12,149 nt of DNA from an uncultured Clostridia bacterium. Lineage in GTDB: Bacteria; Bacillota; Clostridia; Christensenellales; UBA1242. Where the stretch lies: assembly GCA_947625955.1 (NCBI GenBank), contig CANQQH010000021.1:1-12149 (forward strand), read 5' to 3'. A model generated the notes under the pieces. It had not been told where the DNA came from and searched no databases. It saw only the letters and a list, made by a program, of their open reading frames with translations. Positions 1 through 12,149 of this stretch are shown one piece after another. The position numbers were made by a program, and so were the translations under genes. Every line of letters begins with the position of its first letter. Positions within the stretch are counted from its first letter, which is position 1.

Positions 1-95
1 GTATAGATCCAAATCAATAATCATTTTTGCACCTCAAAATTATTATACAATACCCGCCGCAAATTGTCTAGCCATTCAAAAAGTTGCATCAAACG

Positions 96-124
96 TTGAA
101 AATTTTCAAGCCGTGGTATATAAT
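96..124 (+). promoter_or_regulatory. sigma70-like promoter: TTGAAA (96-101), 17-nt spacer, TATAAT (119-124), upstream of the 154..954 CDS; GGGAG RBS at 143-147
   Basis: Hexamers read directly from the sequence with canonical spacing. RBS lies 6 nt before the ATG at 154. Confidence 0.5.
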
Positions 125-153
125 GATTATAATAAAAGGCATGGGAGCAAATT

Positions 154-954
154 ATGAGTGGAGATTATAGTCCAGCAATGAAAGAAGAGTTCATGAATCT
201 TTTGAAAAAACAAAACATTCCGCTTTATGGCCCCACTGGGCACACATTGGATTATAGTGAGCTCGACCCCGACAAAGACGGCAACATGGCTTGCGTTCCA
301 ACAGCAGGGCAGGATTTAGATATGCTTGATTCGAACTATAAAGTTGTTTTGTCTCCCGATGTTAGTCAAAAATTTAGAGACATCATGATGAAAGCTGCCA
401 ACATCAACTATGAAGGCTCAAAAACAGAAATTGGTTTTCTTATGGTGGGCGAAGAAAAACCAGACAAAACTATTGCAATTAACAGAATGGAAATATACAG
501 CATGAATATTGGACGCGCTGGTTTTAATGATGCTCAGCACGACCTCTTAATGAAACTTGTTGACATCATGAAAGCCTATGGCGAAAAGAATAACAGAAAG
601 CCATTTTTTATTTTCGGTCACACCCACCCTGAGCAGCGCGAATTTCAAAACTTTGTTTCCAATTCTTGGAGCCTTGGCGACCTTTGGTCAAGTTATGTTG
701 CCAATAAAGTCTTACGAGGCAGAGTGCAATATGCAGATTTGTTAATAACTCCTTCTATGGATACCAACCTTTTATTTTTCGAAGATGGCAAAGTCGTTGA
801 TGAAAATTTCAAGGGCTTTTATAGATTTGCAGAAGGGATTCATTTAACCGACCTTAATGGGAAAATTGAGAGAATAAACCATGCCTACTCCGACCCAAAC
901 AGTGCGCCGCAACGACTCGACCCAAAACAATATAGCCCAGACATCTTGAAATAG
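154..954 (+). CDS. Candidate JAB/MPN+ (JAMM-like) metalloprotease-fold protein, 266 aa
   Basis: ORF with good RBS and promoter. Motifs: E92-x-x-G-x-L-x-x-G (EIGFLMVG), FIFGH156-T-H158-P, and S173-L-G-D176. These resemble the JAMM pattern E...HxH...SxxD, but the HxH-to-S spacing is longer than the canonical 7. The CDS call is firm; the family call is tentative. Confidence 0.8.
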   Translation: MSGDYSPAMKEEFMNLLKKQNIPLYGPTGHTLDYSELDPDKDGNMACVPTAGQDLDMLDSNYKVVLSPDVSQKFRDIMMKAANINYEGSKTEIGFLMVGEEKPDKTIAINRMEIYSMNIGRAGFNDAQHDLLMKLVDIMKAYGEKNNRKPFFIFGHTHPEQREFQNFVSNSWSLGDLWSSYVANKVLRGRVQYADLLITPSMDTNLLFFEDGKVVDENFKGFYRFAEGIHLTDLNGKIERINHAYSDPNSAPQRLDPKQYSPDILK

Positions 955-978
955 AAACTGGGCGGCGGACTTTTAATA

Positions 979-1009
979 TAAAAAAATCGGCAACCCGCCG
1001 ATTTTTTTG
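979..1009. terminator. Bidirectional rho-independent terminator: A-tract, GC-rich hairpin (atcggc / aaccc / gccgat), T-tract
   Basis: Stem 986-991 pairs with 997-1002, loop of 5 nt, flanked by aaaaaaa (979-985) and ttttttt (1003-1009). It sits between the convergent genes 154..954(+) and 1023..1754(-). Confidence 0.6.
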
Positions 1010-1022
1010 TGTTGTTATTTTA

Positions 1023-1754
1023 TTAAAAAATAATTCTGTTCTTTTTCAAAAAGTCGATGATTTGGTCAACAGGGATTGCAAAATTCATGCCTTCGGCGCT
1101 ATCAATTCCCGAAACAATTGCGCCGATAACCTTTCCATTTTCGTTGAAAATTGGGCCGCCAGAGTTGCCACCGTTAACAGCGCAGTCGGTCATGAGAAGC
1201 ATCTTGCCGTTGACATTTCGGCTCTTGTCGCTAACAACGCCGCTTGTTATGCAGGTTCCATAGCCGAGCGAGTTGCCAACAACATAGACCTTTTCGCCAA
1301 TCCTGACCTTTTTGAAGTCTTCGAACTTCATGGTTTTGGCTTCGCGTGGAAGATTTTTTATTTTCACAAGTGCAAGGTCCACCCCCGCCCCTGAGCCGTG
1401 ACGATCGTCGCCAAGCGCAACAACCTCAGCCGACACATTCTTTCCGCAGAGCTTCACGTCAACATTTTTGCACGAAGTTCCGTCTTCAAAGGTCACAACG
1501 TGAGTGTTCGTGATGGCGTAGCCAAGCTCATTAATCAAAAAGCCCGAACCCGAATGAACATACCTTCCGTCTGCCCATCGAATTTCAAGGATGCCATTGA
1601 TGTTCTTTTCAAAAACATCGGCGCCGCCTGACGCCTCCTTTGAACTTTTCGACGAAACCAAGTCGCTTTCACTATAAACTTGCCCGCAATAGACGCACCT
1701 AAACTTGCCGCCCTCAATCTGCTCGCAATTTCCATTACAAATTTTGCATTTCAT
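1023..1754 (-). CDS. N-terminal zinc-ribbon fused to a trypsin-like (S1 / Trypsin_2-type) serine protease, 243 aa
   Basis: N-terminus reads MKCKICNGNC...FRCVYCG (CxxC...CxxC). Catalytic triad context: ...ITNTH*VV, D*LALVKI, GNS*GGPIF (classic GxSGG serine motif). RBS AAGGAG lies 9 nt upstream. Separated by 22 nt from the upstream TIR gene, so same operon. Confidence 0.9.
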   Translation of the reverse strand: MKCKICNGNCEQIEGGKFRCVYCGQVYSESDLVSSKSSKEASGGADVFEKNINGILEIRWADGRYVHSGSGFLINELGYAITNTHVVTFEDGTSCKNVDVKLCGKNVSAEVVALGDDRHGSGAGVDLALVKIKNLPREAKTMKFEDFKKVRIGEKVYVVGNSLGYGTCITSGVVSDKSRNVNGKMLLMTDCAVNGGNSGGPIFNENGKVIGAIVSGIDSAEGMNFAIPVDQIIDFLKKNRIIF

Positions 1755-1776
1755 AATACACTTCTCCTTTGATTTA

Positions 1777-4700
1777 CTAGGTTCTTTTCCAACCCGAGCA
1801 CATCTTCAATTTTTCTGCCGCATCTTCAGGTGACAATTTATTAAAGTTTGTGTAGGTGTTCATCATCAGTCCTGAACCTGTTATCCACTCACCAGTTATA
1901 TATGCTGTTTCCAAGCCCGAAAAATTGAAGGCATCATCGCCAATTATTGTAACGGACGATGGAATTCTGATAGTTTTGAGAGACTTGCTATGTTCAAACG
2001 CACTTTGACCAATGTTGGTAACATTCCCCAAAAGAACTTTTGAGAGATTGCCGCAACTTCTAAATGCTTTATCGCCAATTACAAATGTGCTTGAAACTGT
2101 GCTGAGGTCAACGGTTTCAAGGCTCTCGCAAAATTCAAACGCGCCTTCGCCAATACCTGTTAGGCTGTTTCCAAATTGAACTGTTTTAAGGTTCCTGCAA
2201 TTTGAGAACGAGCTTTTGCCAATGCTTGTTAGGCCATTTCCAAAGTATACTTCTTGAAGGCTGTTGTTGCCCTCAAATGCATAGTCGTCAATTTCGGTGA
2301 GGCCGTTTCCAAAGTATATCACGCTGAGCTTCTTGCAGTTTTTGAATGTATAGTTATAGCCGCCGATAAGCTTTCTCTTCGCGCGGAACTGCATGGTTTC
2401 CACTCCGTCGCCAATGCTGAGCACGGTGAGTTGGCTGCATCTATCGAATGCCTGTTTGCCAATTTCGGTCACATTGTTTCCAATGTAGATTTCGTTGATT
2501 TTGTCGTTCCAATAGAAGGCTTTTGAGCTGATGGCCGTGTAGCTCTCTGGAATGATGAGTTTCTTTATGGTCTTGGTTCTTATACCGTTATTGAACTTTT
2601 TGCCAACTGCTGTCACTGGCTTGCCACGGTAGGTTTCAGGCAGCACGAGTTCGCCGTCGAACCCTTTGAGGGTGCCGAGCGAACGGATGGTGTAGCCGCT
2701 GTCGTTTTTGTCCATACGCGCGATGATTGCGTCGTCGTAGTAAACAGAGGTGGTGTTGTTTTTATAAACATAGGAAAGGCCAATAACCGCAACGCAGATA
2801 ACAAGAGGAATCAGCATTTTGAATATTGAGCCAACGCCCCTGACATTTTGAATCATTATAATGTCGAGAATTATCAACAGCACGCCAAGCAGCATATAGA
2901 GAAGAAGGAAGAAGTTGCTCTCAAAGATACCAACCGAAACAATATAGAACGCGCTGTTATAGCCAAGATAACCGCAAACTGGAATGAAGAGCAGCACCGC
3001 TGAGCATAAAAGCGAGATAATCAATAGGATTGAGCAAACAACTTTCGTCGCCAAGCGCTTTCTTTTTCTGTGGGCAAATTCTTTTTGCCTATCAATGATT
3101 TGATTGACTTTCAATAGTTCTTTCTTGATGCCAATTTCGCTAAGCTTTGTTGCCACATCGCGGATTTCAAATAGGATTGGGTCTTGGCTGACATTCTTTT
3201 TGATGCTGAAAACATAGCTTTCGTCTGGCAACTTATGTTTTTTGCAAAAATCGCGATAGAGCTTTTGCACTTTTTCTTCGAGTTCTTGTATCTCATTCCT
3301 ACGAGATTCCATGAACTTGTTGGTTTCTCGCATATGATAATCATCAATTGCCTTTTGGATTTGTGCGGAATAGTTGAAAATCTCGGTTTTGGAAGGTCTC
3401 AGGTGTTTGATAACATCGTCGAACTCTTCGGGCTTTGACAAAAGCTTGCTATATTGATCAATCGTCTTTTTGAAGATCATATATTTGTTTGCATTCTGCT
3501 TCTCAGGATGAACTTCATTAAATTGCGTTATCGCGTCGAGATAGTCTTTGTCGCGCGAAATGAAGTCGGTGAGATGCACGAGTTCAAGCAGGTTCCCTAT
3601 TCTGCGCTTTATCAAGAACTTGTTGAAATACGCGTCATAGTTATGAACATCAGTTTGCAAAAGCAAGTCGTTATAGCTATCCGCCATCTCAAAGTTTGGC
3701 TTTCTCTTTGCTTCAGCAAGCCCGAGCAGGTTGTCAATGAACTGTTGGAGATAGTCAATGAAGAGCGTGTCTTGCTTCTTTGGAATCATCTTCAAAACAA
3801 AGTCGAAGATTTTGCTTGCCTGCTCATCCTTTTCGGCTTTCACAAGGTCAATAACTTGCGCAAAAATCTTGCTTGTTGCGTAGTCGTTGAAGCCATAGGA
3901 ATAAACTTCCTTTTCAAGCACATCAAAGTTCTTCTCGTTTTTCAAAAACTCAGGAAGTTCTTTCTTGTTTGAAAGGTTCTTGATTGCAAAGTTTTCATAG
4001 AGCGCTTCCTTATCCGACTTGTCAACTTCCAAAATGTTCGCATAGCAGAGGTTGCGCGACTTTGGCACCTTGCTCAAAAACTCGCGGTTCATTTTGATAT
4101 ATTTGTCTGTGTTGGTTATGGTTTTCAAAACGCTCTTGAAGGTTTCTTCGTCTTTTGTGTCGAGCGCCTCGCGATACATGATGTCTGCGAGTTCGCTGAT
4201 CTTGGCTGGCGACGACTCAGGCAGCGAGATATACTCTTCAAATTCCCTCAAATGCTTGTGATACTTAACTCTCGAATAGAGCGCGTCATAATAAACCGCC
4301 CTCTTCGCTGGGTCAGACTCGGTGGAAATAGCCTTTTCAATGTTGTCGAAATCATAAAGTGCTCTTTTCTTTGCGATATATTGCTGCACATTTTGGCATC
4401 TGGTGTCTGCCAGTTCCAAAATCCAATATGCCGCGCTGAGCTTTGGCCTTTCCTTGATGAGGCTCTCGGCCATTGAGCTCGCCGTCACATAGTCTTCTTC
4501 ATCCAAGAAGTTTTGAAGCGTGCCGATTTGCGCGTGGTCGGACGCTGAAACAACGCCATTTCTCTCAATTTTGAGGTCGCGCTTCTTGATTTGTTGCTCA
4601 ATTACATTCTTCTTTTCAACATTGATTTTTCCGTATTCCTTACGGTCGATGTCTGGAATACGGTTCTTGCTTTCAGAGTACTTACCAACGAAGCTGATGA

Positions 4701-5619
4701 TCTTGTCTTTTGCGTCGAACTCGTCGAGCGCAATACCTTGAATTTTTCCGCTGACGCCCGGCAACCTTTCAATAATCTTGCCATTTTTGAACGCAAAAGT
4801 GATGCTGTTGAGGTGTTTTTCCTCATTCTTTATCATCTGCAAGAATCTTGTGTATTCATTCTGCACCCATTGAGTGTGGAGATAGGATTCGTCGAGGCAG
4901 ACAATGATCATGCAAGGCGAAGAATAGAGCGCATAGAGAATGTATGCCTCATAGTCAACACCGAGATTTTTGTTGAGAACTTCTTCCGAAAAGAATGGAT
5001 TGAAGCCCGCTTCTTTGAGCGCCTTATAGAGTTTCTCTGCCTCGAAATAGTCTTCGGTATGCCTTTTCTTGTTGTCGACTTCGCTGACCTTTGTACAGAT
5101 GAAGCAGTCATAGCTAACACCCGAACTTTTGAGTTCGTTGAACTTGTTCCTTATGTCGTCAATTTCGGTGCCTTTTTGATAATAGACCTTCTTTTGCTCA
5201 GGAGTTGCAAGGTCGAGCGCCTTTTTATAGTTCTTGTCTTCGGTGAACTTTTTGTTGATGACCTCATAGCAAATTGGTTGAAGACATTTCTTCACCTCTT
5301 TGGTGTTTTCGTCTTCGCGCAAACTATTCAAATATTGCACTTTTGCGTTTGCAAGCGCCATTCCAAAGTAGGCTTCGGGCTCTTCTTCGTCTTGCTCGGC
5401 AGCCTTTTGATACATCTGGTATGCGTCTTCAAATCGTCCCTTGTCAAGATCGCGTTCAGCCTCTTTCAAAAGGTCGATAACGCTTTCAGCGGCCTCATGC
5501 TTTGGAACTGTGAATGAACTGTTACAATATTTGCATATAATAACCCCATTTTTTGCTTCGTTGATGTCCAAATCCCCTTGACAGTTCGTACACTTTAATT
5601 GCGTTAGAAGCAGGCTCAT
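1777..5619 (-). CDS. 1280-aa multidomain protein: Zn-ribbon / TPR-like / TIR domain / long alpha-helical solenoid region / 3-4 TM helices / C-terminal BspA-type leucine-rich repeats
   Basis: Long ORF with an AAGGAG RBS. Domains by eye: CxxC...CxxC at aa 10-32. TIR-like block at aa ~170-300 (YDCFICTK...EDYFEAEKLYKALKEAGFNPFF...CMIIVCLDESYLHTQWVQNEYTRF), which aligns well to bacterial TIRs such as TcpB. Hydrophobic helices at aa ~860-952. Repeats of ~23 aa, FGNGLTxIGxxAFxxCxxLxxV, at aa ~1021-1245. Confidence 0.9.
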   Translation of the reverse strand: MSLLLTQLKCTNCQGDLDINEAKNGVIICKYCNSSFTVPKHEAAESVIDLLKEAERDLDKGRFEDAYQMYQKAAEQDEEEPEAYFGMALANAKVQYLNSLREDENTKEVKKCLQPICYEVINKKFTEDKNYKKALDLATPEQKKVYYQKGTEIDDIRNKFNELKSSGVSYDCFICTKVSEVDNKKRHTEDYFEAEKLYKALKEAGFNPFFSEEVLNKNLGVDYEAYILYALYSSPCMIIVCLDESYLHTQWVQNEYTRFLQMIKNEEKHLNSITFAFKNGKIIERLPGVSGKIQGIALDEFDAKDKIISFVGKYSESKNRIPDIDRKEYGKINVEKKNVIEQQIKKRDLKIERNGVVSASDHAQIGTLQNFLDEEDYVTASSMAESLIKERPKLSAAYWILELADTRCQNVQQYIAKKRALYDFDNIEKAISTESDPAKRAVYYDALYSRVKYHKHLREFEEYISLPESSPAKISELADIMYREALDTKDEETFKSVLKTITNTDKYIKMNREFLSKVPKSRNLCYANILEVDKSDKEALYENFAIKNLSNKKELPEFLKNEKNFDVLEKEVYSYGFNDYATSKIFAQVIDLVKAEKDEQASKIFDFVLKMIPKKQDTLFIDYLQQFIDNLLGLAEAKRKPNFEMADSYNDLLLQTDVHNYDAYFNKFLIKRRIGNLLELVHLTDFISRDKDYLDAITQFNEVHPEKQNANKYMIFKKTIDQYSKLLSKPEEFDDVIKHLRPSKTEIFNYSAQIQKAIDDYHMRETNKFMESRRNEIQELEEKVQKLYRDFCKKHKLPDESYVFSIKKNVSQDPILFEIRDVATKLSEIGIKKELLKVNQIIDRQKEFAHRKRKRLATKVVCSILLIISLLCSAVLLFIPVCGYLGYNSAFYIVSVGIFESNFFLLLYMLLGVLLIILDIIMIQNVRGVGSIFKMLIPLVICVAVIGLSYVYKNNTTSVYYDDAIIARMDKNDSGYTIRSLGTLKGFDGELVLPETYRGKPVTAVGKKFNNGIRTKTIKKLIIPESYTAISSKAFYWNDKINEIYIGNNVTEIGKQAFDRCSQLTVLSIGDGVETMQFRAKRKLIGGYNYTFKNCKKLSVIYFGNGLTEIDDYAFEGNNSLQEVYFGNGLTSIGKSSFSNCRNLKTVQFGNSLTGIGEGAFEFCESLETVDLSTVSSTFVIGDKAFRSCGNLSKVLLGNVTNIGQSAFEHSKSLKTIRIPSSVTIIGDDAFNFSGLETAYITGEWITGSGLMMNTYTNFNKLSPEDAAEKLKMCSGWKRT
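1885..2559 (-). other. BspA-type leucine-rich repeat array (LRR_5-like), ~9 repeats of ~23 aa, at the C-terminus of the 1280-aa protein
   Basis: Repeated consensus hxxV-x-FGNxLTxIGxxAFxxCxxLxxV, typical of Treponema/Bacteroides/Listeria-type surface LRRs. Confidence 0.7.
2764..3042 (-). other. Transmembrane helix cluster (3-4 predicted TM segments) of the 1280-aa protein, preceded by a polybasic HRKRKRL stretch
   Basis: Hydrophobic runs VVCSILLIISLLCSAVLLFIPV, (AFYIVSVGIF), FFLLLYMLLGVLLIILDIIMI and IFKMLIPLVICVAVIGLSYVY. Positive-inside rule suggests the N-terminal TIR half is cytoplasmic. Confidence 0.6.
4720..5112 (-). other. TIR domain region of the 1280-aa protein (aa ~170-300); putative catalytic Glu at aa 255 (nt 4855-4857) in WVQNE*Y
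   Basis: Aligns to the TIR alphaC motif W-x-x-x-E-L (WPARELDGL in TcpB; WCLDEL in plant TIRs). The YD-[FC]-F-I-[SC] opening strand is present. Confidence 0.7.
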
Positions 5620-5671
5620 AATTTTCTCCTTTGTATTATGTCTATTTGTTGTGTTTAGCCGTTAGCACTTT

Positions 5672-7741
5672 TCACTCCATAAGTTTTTCAATATCTTCTT
5701 TTTGAACGGATGGAGTTATCTCGCTTATTGCCTTTTCAAAATCTTCTTGGCAAATGTATTTTTCTTCGGTTTTCAGTGCCCTTAGCGCAGAAATTTCTTC
5801 CACGCGGTCCATGAGGTTGGTCATGTCGGCGCCATTATAGCCATTAGTCTTGGTCACCACGGCCGAAACATTGAAGTCGCTCGAAATTGAAACAACGCCT
5901 TTGTGCTTCACCTTTTCAAGCCTGTGCTCAATCATATACTTTCTTGCGTCGTCGTCTGGCAAGCCAACATAGATTCTTGTTCCAAACCTGCCCGGCCTTA
6001 TGAACGCTGAATCGATGTCCCAAGGCTTGTTGGTTGACGCAACCAAGAACAAGATGTTGTTGGTTTTCTTGCCATACTCTTCAATGCCCTGGATCTGCGC
6101 CAAAAATTCTGAGCGCAACTGCTTTGCTATTTGCGACCTTGTGTTCTTTGGCGAGATTGAATCCATTTCGTCAAAATACACAACCGCGCAAGGGAATCTT
6201 CTTGCTTGGTCGAAGAGTGCGCGCACCGCCTTCTCGGAGTTGCCCACCCCTTGGTTTAGAAGATCCGACGGCTTGACCGAGCAGAACTTCGCGCCAATCT
6301 CGTTTGCGATTGCAGCTGCGATCATTGTTTTGCCAGTTCCCGGAGGACCATAGAGGAGCAGTCCCCCGCCGCTCTTTCGAACGTAGCCCTCAAACGCCTT
6401 TGGATTTTTTAGCGGCAAAAGCACCTTGACTTCAACCACTTCCTTAACGCTTTCAAGCCCCGCGATGTCGTCGAACCTTATGCTTGGCAGGCTGTCCCAA
6501 TTGAACTTGAAATCGTCGTTGACTCTATCTTCATCGCTGAGCACCTTTTCCTCAGGCGAACCGAACTTGCGCTCGTCGTCCTTTGCCTCAGGTTTTGGCT
6601 CAACTTGCTTTGGCTCAATTGGTTTTGAGGTTTTATCATTTTTGAGTTCGATTTCATAGACCTTGTCAGGGAAGTCCTGCTCGGTTATTTTCAAAATATC
6701 TTCATTCGTTGGAGATGAGAGTTTCGAAATTCTTTTCGACTGCCTCGTGACAGTCTCTTCAAAAATATTGCGCACGTCTCTTGCATTTCCAAAATTATTT
6801 TCTCGATTTGCAAAGAGCGTGCTGAAATATTTCCTTATCAAATTTTTCGCACTTTCACTCAAAATATATTGATTTTTTGCGCAAAAACCTTCAAAAATCT
6901 CAAAAAGTTCTTCTCCGTTGTAGTCTGGGAAGAAGATGAAATTCTTGAATCGGGAGCTCAGCCCCGGGTTTGAAGAAATGAATTTTTGCATTGGATTGGT
7001 GTAGCCCGCAACGATGATGGCAATGTCGTTTCGCTTGTCTTCCATTTCTTTTAGTATTGTGTCGATTGCCTCTTGCCCAAAGTCGTTCATGCCGCCGTTT
7101 GCGAGAGTGTAGGCCTCATCGATAAACAAAACGCCGCCCTCAGCTTTTTTCAAAACGTCTTTGGTCTTGGTTGCCGTTTGACCAACATAGCCAGCCACAA
7201 GCCCAGCCCTGTCAACTTCAACGAGTTGCCCCTTGCTGAGAATCCCAAGCGCGCAATAAATCTGCGCAATCAGCCTTGCAACCGTGGTCTTGCCCGTTCC
7301 GGGATTGCCCGTGAACACCATGTGATACGACATCTCTGGCACACTCATCCCGCGCTCTTTTCGCATTTGGAAAACTTTGATTTGGTCAATCCAATCGCTA
7401 ACTTGGTCCTTAACGGTTTTGAGGCCGATCAAACCATTAAGCTGCGAGAGCGCCTCTTCAAGCGTGATTTTTTCATTGTTTTGAACGCTCACATCCGCAC
7501 GCTCTTCTTCGGCACTTTTCTTTTGAACGCCAATACTTTCAGCCATTGCAATCAAACTTTTTGCGCGGCTGAACCTTGCCTTTTGAAGTTCGCCAGTGCT
7601 CTGCTTCGCCATTTTGAGCATTTGCTCAGACGCCAGCAAATAATACTTCTTTGCCAGAAGTTTATCTCCGTTTTCTTGGCACTCTTTGGCTTTGCGATAA
7701 TACAAATCAAATGTTTCCGTGAGTAAGTTTATATTCGACAT
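5672..7741 (-). CDS. MIT-like N-terminal domain + tandem AAA+ ATPase (module 1 SpoVK/CbbX-type; module 2 classical AAA with Vps4/katanin-like SRH), 689 aa
   Basis: Walker A1 GNPGTGKT (nt 7286-7309), Walker B1 VLFIDEAY, and an LIGLxxVK...GNPGTGKTTVAR...GGVLFIDEAYxL signature. Walker A2 GPPGTGKT (nt 6326-6349), Walker B2 VVYFDEMD, and SRH-like ASTNKPWDIDSAFIRPGRF. The N-terminal 75 aa form a helical TPR/MIT-like region (DLYYRKAKECQENGDKLLAKKYYLLASEQMLKMAK). RBS AAGGAG. Confidence 0.9.
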   Translation of the reverse strand: MSNINLLTETFDLYYRKAKECQENGDKLLAKKYYLLASEQMLKMAKQSTGELQKARFSRAKSLIAMAESIGVQKKSAEEERADVSVQNNEKITLEEALSQLNGLIGLKTVKDQVSDWIDQIKVFQMRKERGMSVPEMSYHMVFTGNPGTGKTTVARLIAQIYCALGILSKGQLVEVDRAGLVAGYVGQTATKTKDVLKKAEGGVLFIDEAYTLANGGMNDFGQEAIDTILKEMEDKRNDIAIIVAGYTNPMQKFISSNPGLSSRFKNFIFFPDYNGEELFEIFEGFCAKNQYILSESAKNLIRKYFSTLFANRENNFGNARDVRNIFEETVTRQSKRISKLSSPTNEDILKITEQDFPDKVYEIELKNDKTSKPIEPKQVEPKPEAKDDERKFGSPEEKVLSDEDRVNDDFKFNWDSLPSIRFDDIAGLESVKEVVEVKVLLPLKNPKAFEGYVRKSGGGLLLYGPPGTGKTMIAAAIANEIGAKFCSVKPSDLLNQGVGNSEKAVRALFDQARRFPCAVVYFDEMDSISPKNTRSQIAKQLRSEFLAQIQGIEEYGKKTNNILFLVASTNKPWDIDSAFIRPGRFGTRIYVGLPDDDARKYMIEHRLEKVKHKGVVSISSDFNVSAVVTKTNGYNGADMTNLMDRVEEISALRALKTEEKYICQEDFEKAISEITPSVQKEDIEKLME

Positions 7742-7754
7742 ATCTCGTTCCTTT

Positions 7755-8321
7755 CTACTCTGCCATTTTCTTTTTCAAGCTTTCAAGTTCCTTTTCAATC
7801 TCGCTTTCAATCGAGCTTTCGGCAGTTGCTTCGTTCGTCATGAGTGAATCAAGTTCCTTGTTTTCTTCCTCAGTTCCGGCCGACGCCGTTGTGAACGACG
7901 ATTCGGTCTCGTTCATGAACTCTTCCATTTGTTCAGTTTGAACTTCAACGCCAATCATTGCCTCAGCAAACTGCTTTTGCACCTTTGCGAAGTCCGACTC
8001 TTTTGTGAGCTTCATCATGTCTTTGCTGAGCGAGCTCATACCTTTGAGAAAGTCCGCCGTCATTGCCGACATATCTTTCATTTGCGAAGTGATTTCGAAG
8101 TTTAGTTTCATCTCATAGACTCTGCGCTGCTGAGTGATTGTCATTTTGAGCCCAGCGAGAGCGAGGTTATATTGCGCCGTGAGCCCTCTTTGTTTTGCCT
8201 GCTTGCCCGACTCAATATAGCCCTTTTTCTGCTCTTCAAGTTTTTGAATTTGCTTGTTCATTTCGTTGATTGTCTTTTTGATTAGCATCTTTTTTTCGAT
8301 TTCTTTTTTACTAACACCCAT
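7755..8321 (-). CDS. Snf7/ESCRT-III-like protein, 188 aa, with a C-terminal MIM1-like motif
   Basis: Basic N-terminus, then coiled-coil core. The Met-rich helix MKDMSAMTADFLKGMSSLSKDMMKLTKESDFAKVQKQFAEAMIGVEVQTEQMEEFM closely parallels CHMP1-family alpha3-alpha4. The C-terminus EIEKELESLKKKMAE resembles the MIM1 consensus [DE]xxLxxRLxxL[KR]. A 13-nt gap with an RBS separates it from the downstream AAA gene. Confidence 0.75.
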   Translation of the reverse strand: MGVSKKEIEKKMLIKKTINEMNKQIQKLEEQKKGYIESGKQAKQRGLTAQYNLALAGLKMTITQQRRVYEMKLNFEITSQMKDMSAMTADFLKGMSSLSKDMMKLTKESDFAKVQKQFAEAMIGVEVQTEQMEEFMNETESSFTTASAGTEEENKELDSLMTNEATAESSIESEIEKELESLKKKMAE

Positions 8322-8334
8322 AATTTTTCCTCAA

Positions 8335-8937
8335 CTATTCCTCTGGATTTTCCGAGGTTTTTTTGCTTCCCTCAGCAAACATTTCTTGCTCAGCTTCAAC
8401 TTGGTCCTCAGTTTCGAACATGGCAAGCAAAGCATCGTCGTTTGCGTTTGCACCATAGATGCTTTCGTTCTTCTCATATGCCTCTTCAACCTGCTTGAAA
8501 GTCTCATCTGCCGAGGTCAAAACGTCCTCTGCCGAGATCCTGTTTCCAAGCGCTTTGTTGAGAAATTTTGCGAGCCCTTTTTGGTCAGCAAGCAAATTCC
8601 CAAGCGACGCCTTTGACGCGTTTTTGAAAAACTTATTGTCGTCAATTGTGTTTTTCAGCTTGTTCAAAAGACGAATGTTATACATCAAATACATCGCTCT
8701 TTGCACGTTCTGCTCTCTGTCGGCTTTGAGGTTGGTTATCTTCTTTGCATAGAAGAGCCTGACGTCCTGAGATTTCTCCGCCCTGCCCTTTGCCATAAGT
8801 TCGTCTATCTGCTTGCTCTTTGAAGCGAGGTCTTCTTCAAGGTCTTTTTCCTCTTGCTCCAATTTGCAAATTGCGTCAACCACATTCTCACGAGTGAGTT
8901 TGTCATATTTATTTTTGAAAAAAAACATAATTTTCAC
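8335..8937 (-). CDS. Second Snf7/ESCRT-III-like paralog, 200 aa, with an acidic C-terminal tail. The ORF track gives a GTG start at 8937, but the ATG at 8928 (MFFFKNK...) has the better-placed GGTG RBS.
   Basis: Coiled-coil helical protein. The segment ISAEDVLTSADETFKQVEEAY matches the Snf7 LDIDKVDETMDEIREQVE region. Acidic tail reads EDQVEAEQEMFAEGSKKTSENPEE. Confidence 0.6.
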   Translation of the reverse strand: MKIMFFFKNKYDKLTRENVVDAICKLEQEEKDLEEDLASKSKQIDELMAKGRAEKSQDVRLFYAKKITNLKADREQNVQRAMYLMYNIRLLNKLKNTIDDNKFFKNASKASLGNLLADQKGLAKFLNKALGNRISAEDVLTSADETFKQVEEAYEKNESIYGANANDDALLAMFETEDQVEAEQEMFAEGSKKTSENPEE

Positions 8938-8940
8938 CTA

Positions 8941-9282
8941 CTATATCTTTGAATTTCTGTCGGCAATTGCGAGTTTTATTTGCGTGAGCATTGACTTTAT
9001 TTTCTTGTCAACTTCGCCGTCTGCCTTAACGAGCGCGATTCGCATATCTTCAATAAAATGCTTAATTTTCGTGTCATACTCAACAACCTTTGGATCGTCG
9101 GATGGAATGAGATACTTGATTTTTTCCTTTGTTTCCTTCAAGTCTTCCACCATTTCTTCGTTTTCGCCAGCGAGCAAAATCAAGGCGTCGATTGCTCTTT
9201 CATTCTCGCTGATAAGTTCGCGGTTTGCACCAACCTTTTCAGCTGATGATTTCTTTCCAAATATTTTTTTGAATAAACCCAT
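8941..9282 (-). CDS. Small (113 aa) all-helical hypothetical protein with an N-terminal amphipathic basic motif MGLFKKIFGKK
   Basis: ORF packed 3 nt from the next gene. An AAGGAG RBS lies in the 14-nt gap to the upstream gene. No recognisable catalytic motif. Confidence 0.7.
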   Translation of the reverse strand: MGLFKKIFGKKSSAEKVGANRELISENERAIDALILLAGENEEMVEDLKETKEKIKYLIPSDDPKVVEYDTKIKHFIEDMRIALVKADGEVDKKIKSMLTQIKLAIADRNSKI

Positions 9283-9296
9283 TTTCTTTCTCCTTT

Positions 9297-10349
9297 TTAT
9301 TTAAGTTTGTTTCCGCAACCTGAACAGAATGTTGCGTCGGCGTCATTTTCTTTTCCACACTTTGAGCAAACTTGTTTCTCTTTCACAACCTTCTTGCCGC
9401 ACTTTGAGCAGAACACGTCGTTTGCTTTGAGCTCAGCACCGCAATGTGGGCAGAATGTTTTTTGCGCGGCAGCAGCCTTATGCTTTCCACCCTCTTGATT
9501 TGGATGCCCAATAACTTTCAAAACCTCATAGTAGGCGTTTCTGTCTTGAAGTTCAAGCTGACGAAGATACTTTTCTCTTTCCCACTCTTTGTCGTCGAGC
9601 CTCTCAACTTCTTTGAGGTATTCCTTTATCTTCTCTTGTCTCTTAGCCTCGGCAGCAGCGTCTTCAACGGCATTGCTGTCCTCTTCGGAAATTCCAAGAT
9701 ATTCAATGATGAAGTCAACGAGCGAAATACCCCACGACTTGTCGAACTTCTCGCTCAAAATCTTTCCCGACTTTGTTGCAATACTCTTGCGGTTTGCGTC
9801 GAACTGGTCATAGGTGAGCTTTGCCTCTTTCACAACTTTCAAGAAGCAGTCTGCAAACTCGTCAACAACGGCGGCAGAGAATCTCTTTTTGAACTCTTGC
9901 AAGTCAAACTCCTTCTTCACACCCACAACTTTCCTGAAAAATTGCTCTGGGTTTGAAATTGAGATTCCAAACTGACCTCTTGCCCCAACGCTGACAACCT
10001 TGTTGCTGGCTTCGTCGCGATATTTGATTTTCTCAGGTGTGCCCCACAAAATCAAAACGCTGGTGTCTTTGGGCATATAGATGATGTCAACCGAGAAACC
10101 TTTCTTCCAGTTCTTCACTTCGTCTTTTGTTTCAAAAACATTATAGTGACCGCTCTTATAGAACTTCCCATTGTCGCCCCCCTTGATAACATAAGCGTTG
10201 TGAGTGAATGGAACTTCAAACATTGCATCCTTCTCGCGAATCTCGTCAGACACCCTGACGAAAAGCACGCTGTTGTCGTCAACCTTGGCGTTGCAATGAT
10301 TCTGCTCAAACTTGATAATTTGCTGTGATTTTTTAGAAAATAAACCCAT
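9297..10349 (-). CDS. SPFH/Band_7_1-like (YdjI / COG4260-like) protein with a C-terminal double zinc-ribbon, 350 aa; first gene of the operon
   Basis: N-terminus MGLFSKK... The N-terminal half has the MG[LI]F...F.V...A.VI..G......SG.Y.V.T pattern recalled for Band_7_1 (so-called virion core protein) family members. The C-terminus has CPHCG...CSKCG and CSKCG...CSGCG zinc ribbons. RBS AAGGAG 9 nt upstream of the ATG. The SPFH assignment rests on remembered family features only. Confidence 0.8.
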   Translation of the reverse strand: MGLFSKKSQQIIKFEQNHCNAKVDDNSVLFVRVSDEIREKDAMFEVPFTHNAYVIKGGDNGKFYKSGHYNVFETKDEVKNWKKGFSVDIIYMPKDTSVLILWGTPEKIKYRDEASNKVVSVGARGQFGISISNPEQFFRKVVGVKKEFDLQEFKKRFSAAVVDEFADCFLKVVKEAKLTYDQFDANRKSIATKSGKILSEKFDKSWGISLVDFIIEYLGISEEDSNAVEDAAAEAKRQEKIKEYLKEVERLDDKEWEREKYLRQLELQDRNAYYEVLKVIGHPNQEGGKHKAAAAQKTFCPHCGAELKANDVFCSKCGKKVVKEKQVCSKCGKENDADATFCSGCGNKLK

Positions 10350-10390
10350 CTTGATTTTCTCCTTGAAAAATAAATTTGTGTAATAATGTA

Positions 10391-10419
10391 ACTATATAAC
10401 TATATACATAATATGTCAA
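10391..10419 (-). promoter_or_regulatory. Strong sigma70-like promoter for the minus-strand operon: TTGACA (10419-10414), 17-nt spacer, TATAGT (10396-10391)
   Basis: Hexamers read on the reverse complement, followed by the AAGGAG RBS (10364-10359) and the ATG at 10349. A tandem AACTATATA / ACTATATAC repeat overlaps the -10 region. Confidence 0.55.
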
Positions 10420-10813
10420 GCAAACTGTATAAAAACCACTTTTTTTGTGCCGATTTTTGCCAGCAAACTATTTTTTCTGCTTCCACATAATTTTTGAAAA
10501 AAGCATCATGCACATCATCTTTTCTTGCACAAAATCAATTTTCACAAAGTTTTAGAAAACACGAAAATTTACATCATTTTGCAATACTTTTGACGCGATT
10601 TTGCAGAAAACAATGGCAATTCGATTAAACAAAGATTGAAATTTGCACCGAAAACCGCAAATGCAAGGTTCTCACGCTGAAAAATAAGCGAAATGCCACC
10701 AAAAACTCGCAAAAATAAATTCAAAAACAATAAAGCCCCTCTTTCAACAATTTCATCAACACCCTAACTTTCGCTTGCCTCAACCCCGCGCTTTTTGATA
10801 TCATAAACATATA

Positions 10814-11311
10814 TTGGAGAATAGCATGATAAAACTAAAACAATATCGAGACCCATGGCTCGCAGAAAATTTCGATGAATTTATAGGGTTCTACCCACGC
10901 GAATATTTTGTCTTTGACAATTTCTCGTCGTTTAAGGTTCTTTATAACGGCGTGCTTTATTCCACCGTTGAACACGCATATCAGGCAAGCAAATTTTTGG
11001 AAACCGCCCCTGAAATCGCAAAGCAAATTACCGAAAGCTATTCGGCGCACGAAGCGCAAAAAATCGCCTATGCAAACAAAGACAAGCAGCGCGCGGATTG
11101 GGACATCATCAAGGTTGACTTCATGGAAAAACTTTTGCGAGCAAAACTTGAACAAAACCCTTATGTTAAGAAGAAACTTCTTGAAACTGAAAACTACATG
11201 ATATGCGAAGATTCACCAAAAGATAGTTTTTGGGGTATCGGGCCCGACAGAAAAGGGCAAAACCAACTTGGCAAACTTTGGATGAAACTTCGAGATGAAC
11301 TAAGAAAATGA
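10814..11311 (+). CDS. NADAR-domain (YbiA / DUF1768-like) protein, predicted ADP-ribose / NAD-derivative-processing hydrolase. The ORF track starts at TTG 10814; the likely true start is the ATG at 10826, with a GGAG RBS at 10816-10819.
   Basis: Motifs FDNFSSF, STVEHAYQASKF, ADWD and ENYMICEDSPKDSFWGIGPD...GQNQLGKLWMKLRDEL match the NADAR consensus (FSNF / EH.YQA.KF / DW / P.D..WG.G...G.N.LG..LM.VR..L). Confidence 0.85.
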   Translation: MENSMIKLKQYRDPWLAENFDEFIGFYPREYFVFDNFSSFKVLYNGVLYSTVEHAYQASKFLETAPEIAKQITESYSAHEAQKIAYANKDKQRADWDIIKVDFMEKLLRAKLEQNPYVKKKLLETENYMICEDSPKDSFWGIGPDRKGQNQLGKLWMKLRDELRK

Positions 11312-12009
11312 ACAATATCAAATATAAAATATTTCAGGCGAAACAGACAAAGGAAATTCTTCTTTGCTTGCACGGCTTCGCGGGCGACAAAGAAAGTTCA
11401 GTTATCGACGCCATCGGTTCGAGCCTGAAAAACAGCAACATCACAACAATTTCATTCGACCTTCCCTGCCATGGCGAAGATGAAAACAGGGGTATTTTCC
11501 GTGTTGAAAAGTGCCAAGAATATTTGGCTGAGGTTTTGAAAGAAATCAAATCTCACACCAGCGCACCAATCAACATCTTTGCAACCAGCTTTGGCGCATA
11601 TTTATTTTTGCATTATCTCAGTTCTTCAAACGATAAATTCAAAAACATCATCTTGCGTTCCCCCGCCATTGACATGCCTCACATCATCCGCAAAATAATG
11701 AAAGAGCACGGCGTCCGCGATATAAAATTCTCGCCCATAAATCTTGGCTATGGTCGGGAACTGTTCATCGACAATCAATTCATTTCATCTCTTTCCCTGC
11801 CTAAGTTCGATTCAAAAAACAGCATAGTGATAAACATCATTCAAGGCAGAAAGGACGAGCTCATTGACTGCGCGTTCAACGAAAAATACTTCGAGAAATA
11901 CTTCAATGGTCGCCATAAAATCTACTATTTTGACTCCGCCGACCATAGATACAAAAATCCTGGCGAGAAAGAAAAGATAGTTGAAATAGTGAAAAATATT
12001 CTATTTTGA
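11308..12009 (+). CDS. alpha/beta-hydrolase-fold serine hydrolase/esterase, 233 aa, translationally coupled (ATGA overlap) to the NADAR gene
   Basis: LCLHGFAG (oxyanion region), nucleophile elbow FATS*FGAY (GxSxG variant), acid QGRKD*ELID, and His DSADH*RY, in the canonical order Ser-Asp-His. Confidence 0.8.
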   Translation: MNNIKYKIFQAKQTKEILLCLHGFAGDKESSVIDAIGSSLKNSNITTISFDLPCHGEDENRGIFRVEKCQEYLAEVLKEIKSHTSAPINIFATSFGAYLFLHYLSSSNDKFKNIILRSPAIDMPHIIRKIMKEHGVRDIKFSPINLGYGRELFIDNQFISSLSLPKFDSKNSIVINIIQGRKDELIDCAFNEKYFEKYFNGRHKIYYFDSADHRYKNPGEKEKIVEIVKNILF

Positions 12010-12086
12010 AAATTTAATTGTATAAAACACATCAATTCACACAGTTTTTTACATTTTTATTTTCAATTTGAAAAGTTGAGGTATAA

Positions 12087-12149
12087 ATGGAATTTATAAA
12101 ATTTTTCAAGAACAAGAATAACATAAAAGAATCCATCGTTATTGTTTTT
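12087..12149 (+). CDS. 5' fragment of a downstream ORF (MEFIKFFKNKNNIKESIVIVF...), runs off the window
   Basis: GAGG RBS at 12078-12081, ATG at 12087. Only 21 codons are visible. Confidence 0.3.
   Translation, partial: MEFIKFFKNKNNIKESIVIVF

Follow-up and report, generated by a model that had tools for sequence, protein, structure and literature searches.

Can a bacterium assemble the three parts of a Toll-like receptor (TLR) in reverse order within a single protein and, if so, would its TIR domain and its leucine-rich repeats (LRRs) come to lie on opposite sides of the membrane? The question is raised by a 12,149-nucleotide stretch of DNA from an uncultured Clostridia bacterium (contig CANQQH010000021.1, positions 1 to 12,149), which is referred to here as the window. 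Positions 1777-5619 of its minus strand hold an open reading frame (ORF) for 1280 amino acid residues, which begins with ATG and is preceded, at a distance of 7 nucleotides, by the Shine-Dalgarno sequence AGGAG. The initial annotation of the window proposed, without naming the strand, that this single protein contains, in this order, a TIR domain, a transmembrane (TM) block and an LRR array. The gene, Pfam and AlphaFold2 agree on that order, and the fusion of the three parts in one gene is confirmed. Two homologs from other data sources, P0002 and P0003 (P numbers are used for related proteins and L numbers for related loci), show 56-57% identity over 100% of the query; because they match at full length, the fusion is not an assembly artefact, and a chimera was ruled out. 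From the N-terminus to the C-terminus the protein comprises a zinc ribbon, a TPR-like/beta-hairpin unit, the TIR domain, a TPR-like solenoid of ~400 residues, a hydrophobic block and BspA-type LRRs, as follows.

5485..5619, minus strand: N-terminal zinc ribbon, residues 1-45 (C10, C13, C29, C32); cysteine conservation, AlphaFold2
5125..5484, minus strand: TPR-like helix pair, beta-hairpin and two helices, residues 46-165; Pfam, family profile, AlphaFold2
4660..5124, minus strand: TIR domain, residues 166-320, with invariant Y246, W251 and E255; Pfam, Foldseek, alignment
3370..4659, minus strand: TPR-like alpha-solenoid, residues 321-750, predicted to be cytoplasmic; AlphaFold2, Foldseek
3055..3369, minus strand: linker helices from solenoid to membrane, residues 751-855, with the polybasic HRKRKRL at the end; AlphaFold2, sequence
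2755..3054, minus strand: membrane block, residues 856-955, predicted as TM1 (856-884), a short interfacial helix (889-898), TM2 (902-923) and TM3 (929-955); AlphaFold2, hydropathy, homolog charges
1780..2754, minus strand: BspA-type LRR beta-solenoid, residues 956-1280, predicted to lie outside the cell; Pfam, Foldseek, AlphaFold2

The TIR domain is recognized by Pfam TIR_2 (PF13676), which aligns with residues 190-299 at 29.7 bits against a gathering score of 28 (expect value E=9.8e-7), and TIR_2 matches are precomputed for nearly all of 120 homologs. An AlphaFold2 model of residues 1-330, based upon an alignment of 80 sequences (predicted local distance difference test, pLDDT, 89.6), shows an alpha/beta (flavodoxin-like) domain of the TIR type. 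Comparison with the PDB using Foldseek gave as top matches TIR-STING (9lmq), SARM1, MAL, MyD88, the SPARTA TIR-APAZ protein and SpbK of B. subtilis, each at a probability of ~1.0 and with a best E of 6.5e-4. The TIR call made in the initial annotation is therefore upheld by a Pfam score above the gathering score and by top structural matches that are all TIR domains. At the level of PDB sequences, the TIR profile returned marginal TIR matches only (RUN1, 0.04; TLR, 0.048), and no TIR matches were left when the profile was truncated.

Alignment of 110 family members reveals that Y246, W251 and E255 are invariant, and the AlphaFold2 model places them in the helix that follows strand C. The corresponding generic TIR positions are Y/F66, W71 and E75; E75 is the glutamate on which NADase activity depends, and in SARM1 both W71 and E75 contact the ligand (PMC7075850). 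The spacing of Y246-W251-E255 is identical to that of the generic residues, and E255 appears to match the NADase glutamate position, an equivalence which rests on motif spacing and modeled secondary structure rather than on a residue-level structural alignment.

The C-terminal array matches Pfam LRR_5 (PF13306) with E=2.2e-44, and the strands of its AlphaFold2 beta-solenoid run from residue 959 to ~1255. Foldseek relates it to 4gt6 and 4fs7 (both gut-bacterial "cell surface proteins"), PcpA (4cp6) and TpLRR (6mlx), so that the LRR_5 family originally assigned is supported by sequence and by fold matches to BspA-type surface proteins. For this protein NCBIfam yielded only a match to an LRR adhesin model, which fell under the cutoff. 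The protein can be counted as a true member of both domain families, TIR_2 and LRR_5.

Among the remaining cytoplasmic parts, the zinc ribbon is matched only faintly by Pfam zinc-ribbon models, as against the strong conservation of its cysteines in the 110 homologs (C29 and C32 invariant, C10 and C13 at least 90% conserved) and its beta-hairpins in the AlphaFold2 model (pLDDT >90); on these grounds the N-terminal zinc ribbon proposed earlier can be retained. The "TPR-like repeats" said to follow it stand in part. Pfam TPR_11 hits residues 58-93 weakly (E=4.5e-5, under the cutoff), positions 52-84 of the family profile align with consensus TPR proteins, and the model contains helices 45-59, 63-76 and 81-91, strands 94-102 and 109-117, and helices spanning 129-166. 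The unit is TPR-like, but it is a single helix pair followed by a beta-hairpin and not a run of repeats. Downstream of the TIR domain, ~25 helices at residues ~359-750 (pLDDT 93-97) build a solenoid that Foldseek compares with the TPR superhelices of SPINDLY, OGT, IFT70, Ski3 and CTPR; Pfam has no match within residues 321-750, and the region is kept in class A homologs. Linker helices 751-794, 814-828 and 833-851 lead to HRKRKRL, which is seen directly before the hydrophobic block, as first reported.

Which way the LRRs face turns on the number of TM helices, and this had been set as the hinge of the initial annotation. AlphaFold2, the distribution of charges and the parity of TM counts predict three rather than four, with the LRRs opposite the TIR domain. 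Hydropathy analysis reveals one hydrophobic block, residues 854-954, and in the model of residues 321-1280 (50 sequences, pLDDT 89.4) it contains three helices long enough to span the membrane. The helix at 889-898 consists of 10 residues, is followed by E-S-N and, as modeled, cannot span the membrane; its counterpart in more distant homologs is made up of polar and aromatic residues (GxSPxWExW type). In the 17 homologs with three TM helices and LRRs, the mean number of Lys plus Arg is ~6 in the 15 residues before TM1, ~1 in the 24 residues of loop 1, ~4 in the 13 residues of loop 2 and ~1.7 in the 15 residues after TM3, which is the positive-inside pattern of a protein with its N-terminus inside and its C-terminus outside. 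The number of TM helices ahead of the LRR array is odd (1, 3 or 5) in 25 of 27 family members, proteins that are related to each other, so that this count is no probability. P0002 is one of the two exceptions, in that a greedy scan splits off the short helix as a fourth segment. Three different architectures, with one, three and five TM helices, are each predicted to put the LRRs opposite the TIR domain. In some relatives TM3 is followed by a non-LRR tail with a GLUG motif (P0060, E=2e-4), which is typical of surface proteins.

The model, the homolog charges and the odd TM counts together favor three TM helices plus a short interfacial helix, with the N-terminus inside and the LRRs outside. 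The predicted layout, which we regard as quite probable, is one of ~855 cytoplasmic residues followed, beyond the membrane block, by a C-terminal LRR solenoid of 325 residues on the outer face of the membrane. Since the LRRs begin about 5-10 residues after TM3, they would sit on the surface of the membrane, below the wall. As predicted, the protein can fairly be said to have the parts of a TLR in reverse order and the sidedness of a TLR. Were the segment at 889-900 to span the membrane, the LRRs would be cytoplasmic, as they are in 71 soluble members of the family, and there are hints in this direction: the greedy hydropathy scan finds four segments in the closest homolog (P0002), and the segment is more hydrophobic in the P0001-P0003 subclade. 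We nevertheless consider a four-TM topology very unlikely, as the helix has only 10-12 residues before E-S-N, its GxSPxWExW equivalent in other homologs is polar and aromatic, and a fourth crossing would move the basic TM2-TM3 loop outside and break the odd-count pattern.

A further argument for the outward orientation, that BspA-type LRRs are normally surface-exposed, proved to be weak. The same LRRs occur with neither a TM segment nor a signal peptide in 71 of 189 family members, and for this reason the side on which they lie is not fixed across the family. A family-wide fixed side was rejected, LRR_5 arrays being used on both sides of the membrane.

The protein had been presented as unusual; it does not stand alone, but is one variable member of a paralog-rich family, hundreds strong, in Clostridia of the Christensenellales/Oscillospirales type. 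Homolog searches returned 179 proteins, with a Clostridia metagenome bin as every named source, and a scan of species-representative genomes located 76 family loci. The sources include Christensenella, Christensenellaceae, Oscillospiraceae, Candidatus Coproplasma, many rabbit-gut Clostridia bins and the cultured species Pumilibacter muris. The head, made up of the zinc ribbon, the TPR-like unit and the TIR domain, is ~50% identical family-wide, and everything after it varies. Among 189 non-redundant members, 71 possess LRRs without TM helices, 37 possess three TM helices without a detected LRR and 17 possess three TM helices followed by LRRs, while 1, 2, 5 or as many as 12 TM helices are found in smaller groups; these counts are approximate, some of the proteins being cut at contig ends. 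One soluble LRR member, P0085, also has 4Fe-4S domains, which fits a cytoplasmic location of its LRRs. Identity to the two nearest homologs is 81% in the TIR domain, falling to 49% in the LRRs and 39-43% in the TM block. The pattern is one of a conserved head with variable, swappable tails.

Several genomes hold 5-7 or more paralogs, some of them in tandem. Arrays of two to five soluble TIR-LRR paralogs are found in L009 (1-17257), L011, L052, L059 and L064, that of L009 being broken by a 337-residue ORF, a Snf7-like ORF of 196 residues and a single-domain AAA ATPase. The zinc ribbon also occurs in other settings. A second, internal copy of CxxC...CxYC is present in some relatives (P0006, P0070), a protein with ribbon and LRRs and without TIR is encoded in L083 (14633-17722), and in the window both the TIR protein (5485-5619, minus strand) and a protease (1664-1754, minus strand) begin with similar CxxC...CxYC ribbons. 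From its sequence distribution the ribbon looks like a portable docking module.

To what might such a protein be connected? The TIR-LRR gene is one of seven minus-strand genes running from 10349 to 1023, a context that had been missed and which probably defines the pathway. The other genes and the putative signals that flank them are listed below.

10391..10419, minus strand: promoter-like site, the best in the region, immediately upstream of the SPFH gene; TTGACA-17-TATAGT, 11/12, a consensus match only
9297..10349, minus strand: SPFH protein (Band_7_1, B. subtilis YdjI-type), first gene of the operon, with a C-terminal double zinc ribbon; Pfam Band_7_1 E=2.7e-16, Zn_Ribbon_1, DZR
8941..9282, minus strand: helical protein of 113 residues, without family assignment; orthologs in 14 loci
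8335..8937, minus strand: coiled-coil protein of 200 residues; orthologs in 12 loci
7755..8321, minus strand: Snf7/ESCRT-III-superfamily-like protein of 188 residues; weak Pfam Snf7 match, profiles
5672..7741, minus strand: double AAA ATPase with a CbbX/SpoVK-like D1 and a Cdc48/VAT-like D2, Walker A and B in both; Pfam, NCBIfam, PDB
1023..1754, minus strand: trypsin/HtrA-like serine protease, last gene of the operon, with an N-terminal zinc ribbon and no PDZ; Pfam Trypsin_2 E=4.4e-27
974..1014, strand unassigned: terminator-like hairpin immediately downstream of the protease gene; 18-pair stem and T-run, a consensus match only

The window proteins were compared with the six-frame ORFs of 86 related loci. 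The same gene set and order recurs in L027, L032, L040, L041, L043, L048, L051, L059, L069 and L083, with partial copies in L082 and L085. There is also a short form, consisting of SPFH (with or without the 113-residue protein) and a gene for the TIR head with some tail (TIR-X), in L001, L003, L012, L017, L042 and L084; in these six loci the SPFH gene lies directly upstream of the family member, and it is present in all full operons. The protease gene is kept next to the AAA gene across loci, and the protease carries a CKIC...CVYC ribbon together with TNTHVV, DLALVKI and GNSGGP, which hold the predicted catalytic His, Asp and Ser. The TIR-X gene of the operon varies by locus, being represented by soluble LRR, LRR-less, multi-TM and solenoid-plus-TM forms. 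Diverged sets of Snf7-like and AAA genes, in part with protease and SPFH genes, adjoin family genes in L009, L079, L039, L072 and L080, and an association that persists through such divergence speaks for a functional link. The contigs L088 and L089 are syntenic except that L088 (10576-12871) has a 673-residue TIR gene and a 75-residue ORF inserted between the genes for the 188-residue Snf7-like protein and the AAA ATPase; judged from the two sequences, this is a strain-level polymorphism of a TIR cassette. The core genes are 70-80% identical across genera.

Other features of these loci deserve mention. In L003 (6508-8256), a short form comprising SPFH, a 116-residue protein and a TIR-TM-LRR gene lies at the edge of a prophage, directly after its holin and integrase. 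The flanks of the P. muris loci L054 and L067 showed no core operon. In two genomes core operons lie near the sporulation regulators Spo0A and SpoIIID (L087, 4920-5690; L088, 2823-3086), and D1 of the ATPase is SpoVK-like; a role in membrane fission during sporulation is conceivable. The 200-residue ORF was listed with a GTG start (VKIMFFF..., 8928-8937, minus strand), and its orthologs begin with MWPFKSKYDKL; to judge by them the true start is probably an ATG three codons downstream. The SPFH protein (10338-10349, minus strand), the 113-residue protein (9271-9282, minus strand) and many distant Snf7-like relatives share N-termini of the MGLF(K/S)KK type, which may represent a common membrane-binding (H0-like) motif.

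Two plus-strand genes of the window lie outside the operon. Divergent from its promoter region is a gene with a NADAR domain (10814-11311; Pfam E=4e-30), which also resembles the "NADAR family anti-phage protein" model, under the cutoff. NADAR enzymes act on ADP-ribose adducts, and the presence of such a gene beside a TIR gene is suggestive. However, a search with the window proteins found it in none of the 86 related loci. The second, an ORF of 266 residues (154-954), contains "GHTHP...SWSLGD," reminiscent, with unusual spacing, of the HxH...SxxD motif of JAMM/MPN metalloproteases, and has no match in Pfam, NCBIfam or PADLOC.

The 188-residue protein of the window matches Pfam Snf7 over its full length with E=0.016, under the cutoff, and nine of its 14 orthologs match weakly (best E=8e-4). 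An exhaustive profile search of 1.84 billion representatives recovered 375 relatives. Of 65 distant relatives, 13 match Snf7 with a best E of 1.4e-9, and the PDB entry matched best by a profile of 25 diverse members is CHMP2A (7zcg; E=0.007, in register over 130 residues). Homology to Snf7/ESCRT-III by transitivity is likely on this evidence. The link emerged just from the exhaustive search: a word-indexed search with the 188-residue family returned close unannotated orthologs only, and profiles restricted to the orthologs of the 188-, 200- and 113-residue proteins found nothing useful in the PDB. The C-terminus of the 188-residue protein is conserved (ESEIEKELESLKKK) and may resemble the MIM1 motif, which binds MIT domains; an MIT domain suspected by eye in residues 1-103 of the AAA ATPase was not detected. 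Using hhalign, the 200-residue and 188-residue families are collinear over 166 columns (E=0.002, at a probability of only 14%), and the former is possibly a second ESCRT-III-like paralog. The 113-residue protein showed no relation to the Snf7-like family and no informative profile match.

By PDB sequence matches D2 of the ATPase is closest to D2 of VAT/p97/Cdc48, and D1 is CbbX/SpoVK-like. The protein also matches the PADLOC model of IetA (E=4.8e-40) and scores 116.8 in NCBIfam against a cutoff of 510. Elsewhere, distant relatives of the 188-residue Snf7-like domain (P0340-P0421) occur as N-terminal fusions, the partners of which are FtsK/SpoIIIE ATPases (12), RuvB-like AAA proteins (9), other AAA proteins (10), NERD nucleases (3) and TnsA-like endonucleases (3); in L079 (12678-14354) the domain is fused straight to a Cdc48-like AAA domain. 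In the ydj operon of B. subtilis, PspA is linked to Band-7/zinc-ribbon proteins, and occasionally to a two-domain AAA protein (PMC11237479). No paper that connects PspA/SPFH/ESCRT-III-type modules with Toll-type TIR proteins came up in full-text searches of the literature.

How these parts might work together can be sketched as follows. The conserved head would be the signaling and docking part of the protein, and the variable tail, be it LRRs inside or outside, TM bundles or other domains, would set where and what is sensed. The protein would cluster when its LRRs bind something outside or when its TM/interfacial region responds to membrane disturbance, and clustering would bring the TIR domains together, leading to NAD+ cleavage or the synthesis of a signal nucleotide at Glu255. 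TIR enzymes generally need self-association for activity. The output would be coupled to the SPFH/zinc-ribbon protein, the Snf7-like polymers, the double AAA ATPase and the zinc-ribbon protease, a machine which might repair, excise or remodel the affected patch of membrane, or trigger proteolysis; the ribbons of the TIR head, the protease and the SPFH protein would serve as common docking elements. A sensor function is what we infer from the architecture, and we hold the mechanism as a whole only tentatively, as a possibility falling somewhat short of an even chance. A conflict-type role is supported by the expansion of paralogs, the tandem arrays, the presence or absence of cassettes between strains and the variable tails.

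Several observations weigh against this sensor mechanism or against a part in defense. The pLDDT in the TM block is just 64-85, and the topology is a prediction. The glutamate corresponding to E255 is also common in some non-enzymatic TLR TIR domains (PMC7075850), and on that account its conservation permits NADase activity and is no proof of it; domain-library scans of the window proteins revealed no SLOG, Macro, SIR2 or STING domain as a receptor of a TIR signal. The core operon of L087 has no TIR gene inside it, and ~60% of the family loci lack such neighbors within 10 kilobases and stand alone among housekeeping genes; the link between family and operon may therefore be loose, and if there is one it must often operate in trans. 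The 70-80% identity of the core genes looks more like housekeeping than an arms race. A defense role is without direct support: PADLOC assigns no family to the TIR protein, the head has no relative in INPHARED phages, IMG/VR viral contigs or phage records, the window DNA has no match among PLSDB plasmids, and to these are added the housekeeping flanks and the conserved core.

The high conservation of the core operon among housekeeping genes, with TIR-X genes as interchangeable cassettes inside or beside it, would also suit an arrangement in which the head is a docking tag for the SPFH/ESCRT-III-like/AAA machine and the TIR domain only an assembly scaffold. The machine would then sort, insert, cluster or shed the tails, for example on vesicles, and an outward LRR would be adhesin-like and not a sensor. 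The similar N-terminal ribbon of the protease, the gut-bacterial "cell surface proteins" among the best structural matches of the LRRs and the common occurrence of the conserved Glu in non-enzymatic TLR TIR domains are consistent with this. We think it unlikely all the same: invariance of W251 and E255 across ~110 diverged paralogs exceeds the needs of a scaffold, the soluble LRR members have no obvious route of export, and there is no sign of vesicle formation.

The wiring could also run in reverse, the SPFH/Snf7-like module sensing membrane damage and the TIR-X proteins acting as effectors which their LRR or TM tails only position. PspA and SPFH systems do answer membrane stress (PMC7619361, PMC11237479), and some members resident in the operon, such as that of L032 with 663 residues, have neither LRR nor TM; rapid tail variation and the expansion of paralogs fit recognition better than positioning, however, and leave this option decidedly unlikely. 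Much the same small probability attaches to an autonomous, toxin-like TIR NADase of abortive infection for which the operon position is incidental. Bacterial TIR proteins commonly act in phage defense, many of the paralogs stand alone and one homolog has a prophage integrase and holin as neighbors, but three diverged versions of the Snf7-like/AAA module each adjoin family genes, PADLOC finds no match, and the neighborhoods inspected are unlike typical defense islands.

Returning to the sensor mechanism, what would it mean if it held? The domains and the receptor logic are already known; full-text searches of the literature found no description of the TIR-TM-LRR architecture, of the family or of the operon association. 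To our knowledge, most of the bacterial TIR proteins that have been studied are soluble enzymes of the cytoplasm with a part in phage defense, and transmembrane sensing by a TIR protein has been seen as peculiar to animals. Should the predicted topology and a TIR activity both prove true, bacteria too would couple an outward repeat sensor to an inward TIR domain, and the family would supply a natural series of exchangeable sensors, inside and outside the cell, for a single signaling head. A bolder, and on balance doubtful, proposition is that gut Clostridia possess a germline-encoded repertoire of TIR receptors, with outward or cytosolic LRRs, which would detect surface or internal events (phage contact, envelope damage, foreign molecules) and signal via TIR chemistry to an ESCRT-III-like/AAA/protease machine. 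Should this be so, it would be a prokaryotic functional counterpart of TLR signaling and would include the first bacterial Snf7-type ESCRT system with a dedicated classical AAA ATPase. According to a 2025 review, bacteria appear to lack a Vps4-like ATPase (PMC7619361), and for that reason the Snf7-like/AAA pair deserves a study of its own. In many Clostridia a Snf7-like protein shares an operon with an SPFH protein, a protease and a AAA ATPase of the Cdc48/Vps4 clade, which makes the recycling and use of bacterial ESCRT-III-like polymers directly testable. Family members are present in Pumilibacter muris (L054, L067), a cultured species in which experiments may be feasible.

Among known systems, the comparison with Toll and the TLRs is the most immediate. 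Both have an LRR solenoid outside, a membrane anchor and a TIR domain inside (as predicted here), and both combine a conserved TIR with diversified, paralog-rich LRRs. TLRs, however, have a signal peptide, N-terminal LRRs, a single type I TM helix and a C-terminal TIR, whereas here the TIR comes first, the LRRs come last, three TM helices are predicted, a signal peptide is absent, the LRRs are of the bacterial BspA/LRR_5 type, a zinc ribbon and ~550 residues of TPR-like solenoid and linker helices are added, and the operon partners are unrelated to adaptors of the MyD88 type. The resemblance is an analogy: the protein is not a member of the TLRs, and common descent of the architecture is not implied.

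The BspA-family surface proteins (PcpA, TpLRR and those of gut Bacteroides and Firmicutes) share the LRR_5 fold and sequence family; in the present protein the LRRs are instead anchored by an upstream three-TM block and fused to a large cytoplasmic region, with no export by signal peptide. Plant TIR-NB-LRR and bacterial STAND/NLR-like TIR proteins likewise have an N-terminal TIR with a catalytic-type Glu, repeat domains behind it and large paralog expansions, and the soluble family members, TIR then LRR, resemble the plant proteins minus the NTPase. Pfam finds no NB-ARC, NACHT or other STAND NTPase here, for which reason this is not an NLR/STAND protein; it has a TPR-like solenoid as a spacer and is membrane-embedded. 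With Thoeris ThsB, TIR-STING, SPARTA TIR-APAZ and SpbK it shares the TIR fold and the NADase-type Glu, but it differs from these defense systems in architecture and operon, in lacking a PADLOC match and in having no detected ThsA, STING or Argonaute partner.

The operon has its own counterparts. IetAS is a defense pair of an AAA ATPase and a serine protease, and here D2 of the ATPase matches IetA (E=4.8e-40) next to a serine protease gene; the match is under the NCBIfam cutoff, there are two AAA domains, and the protease is trypsin-like, whereas IetS is subtilisin-like. In the PspA-SPFH membrane-stress module ydjFGHI of B. subtilis a Band_7_1 SPFH protein with zinc ribbons adjoins ESCRT-III-superfamily proteins (PMC11237479), a neighborhood like that of the SPFH gene and the likely ESCRT-III relative here, although the polymer protein of the present operon is Snf7-like and not PspA_IM30. 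As with archaeal and eukaryotic ESCRT-III and Vps4, a AAA ATPase of the classical clade is at hand, in this case in the same operon; Vps4 consists of an MIT domain and a single classical AAA domain, whereas the ATPase described here is a CbbX-like and Cdc48-like double AAA protein with no MIT match. Relative to both ydjFGHI and ESCRT-III/Vps4, a protease and the TIR proteins are added.

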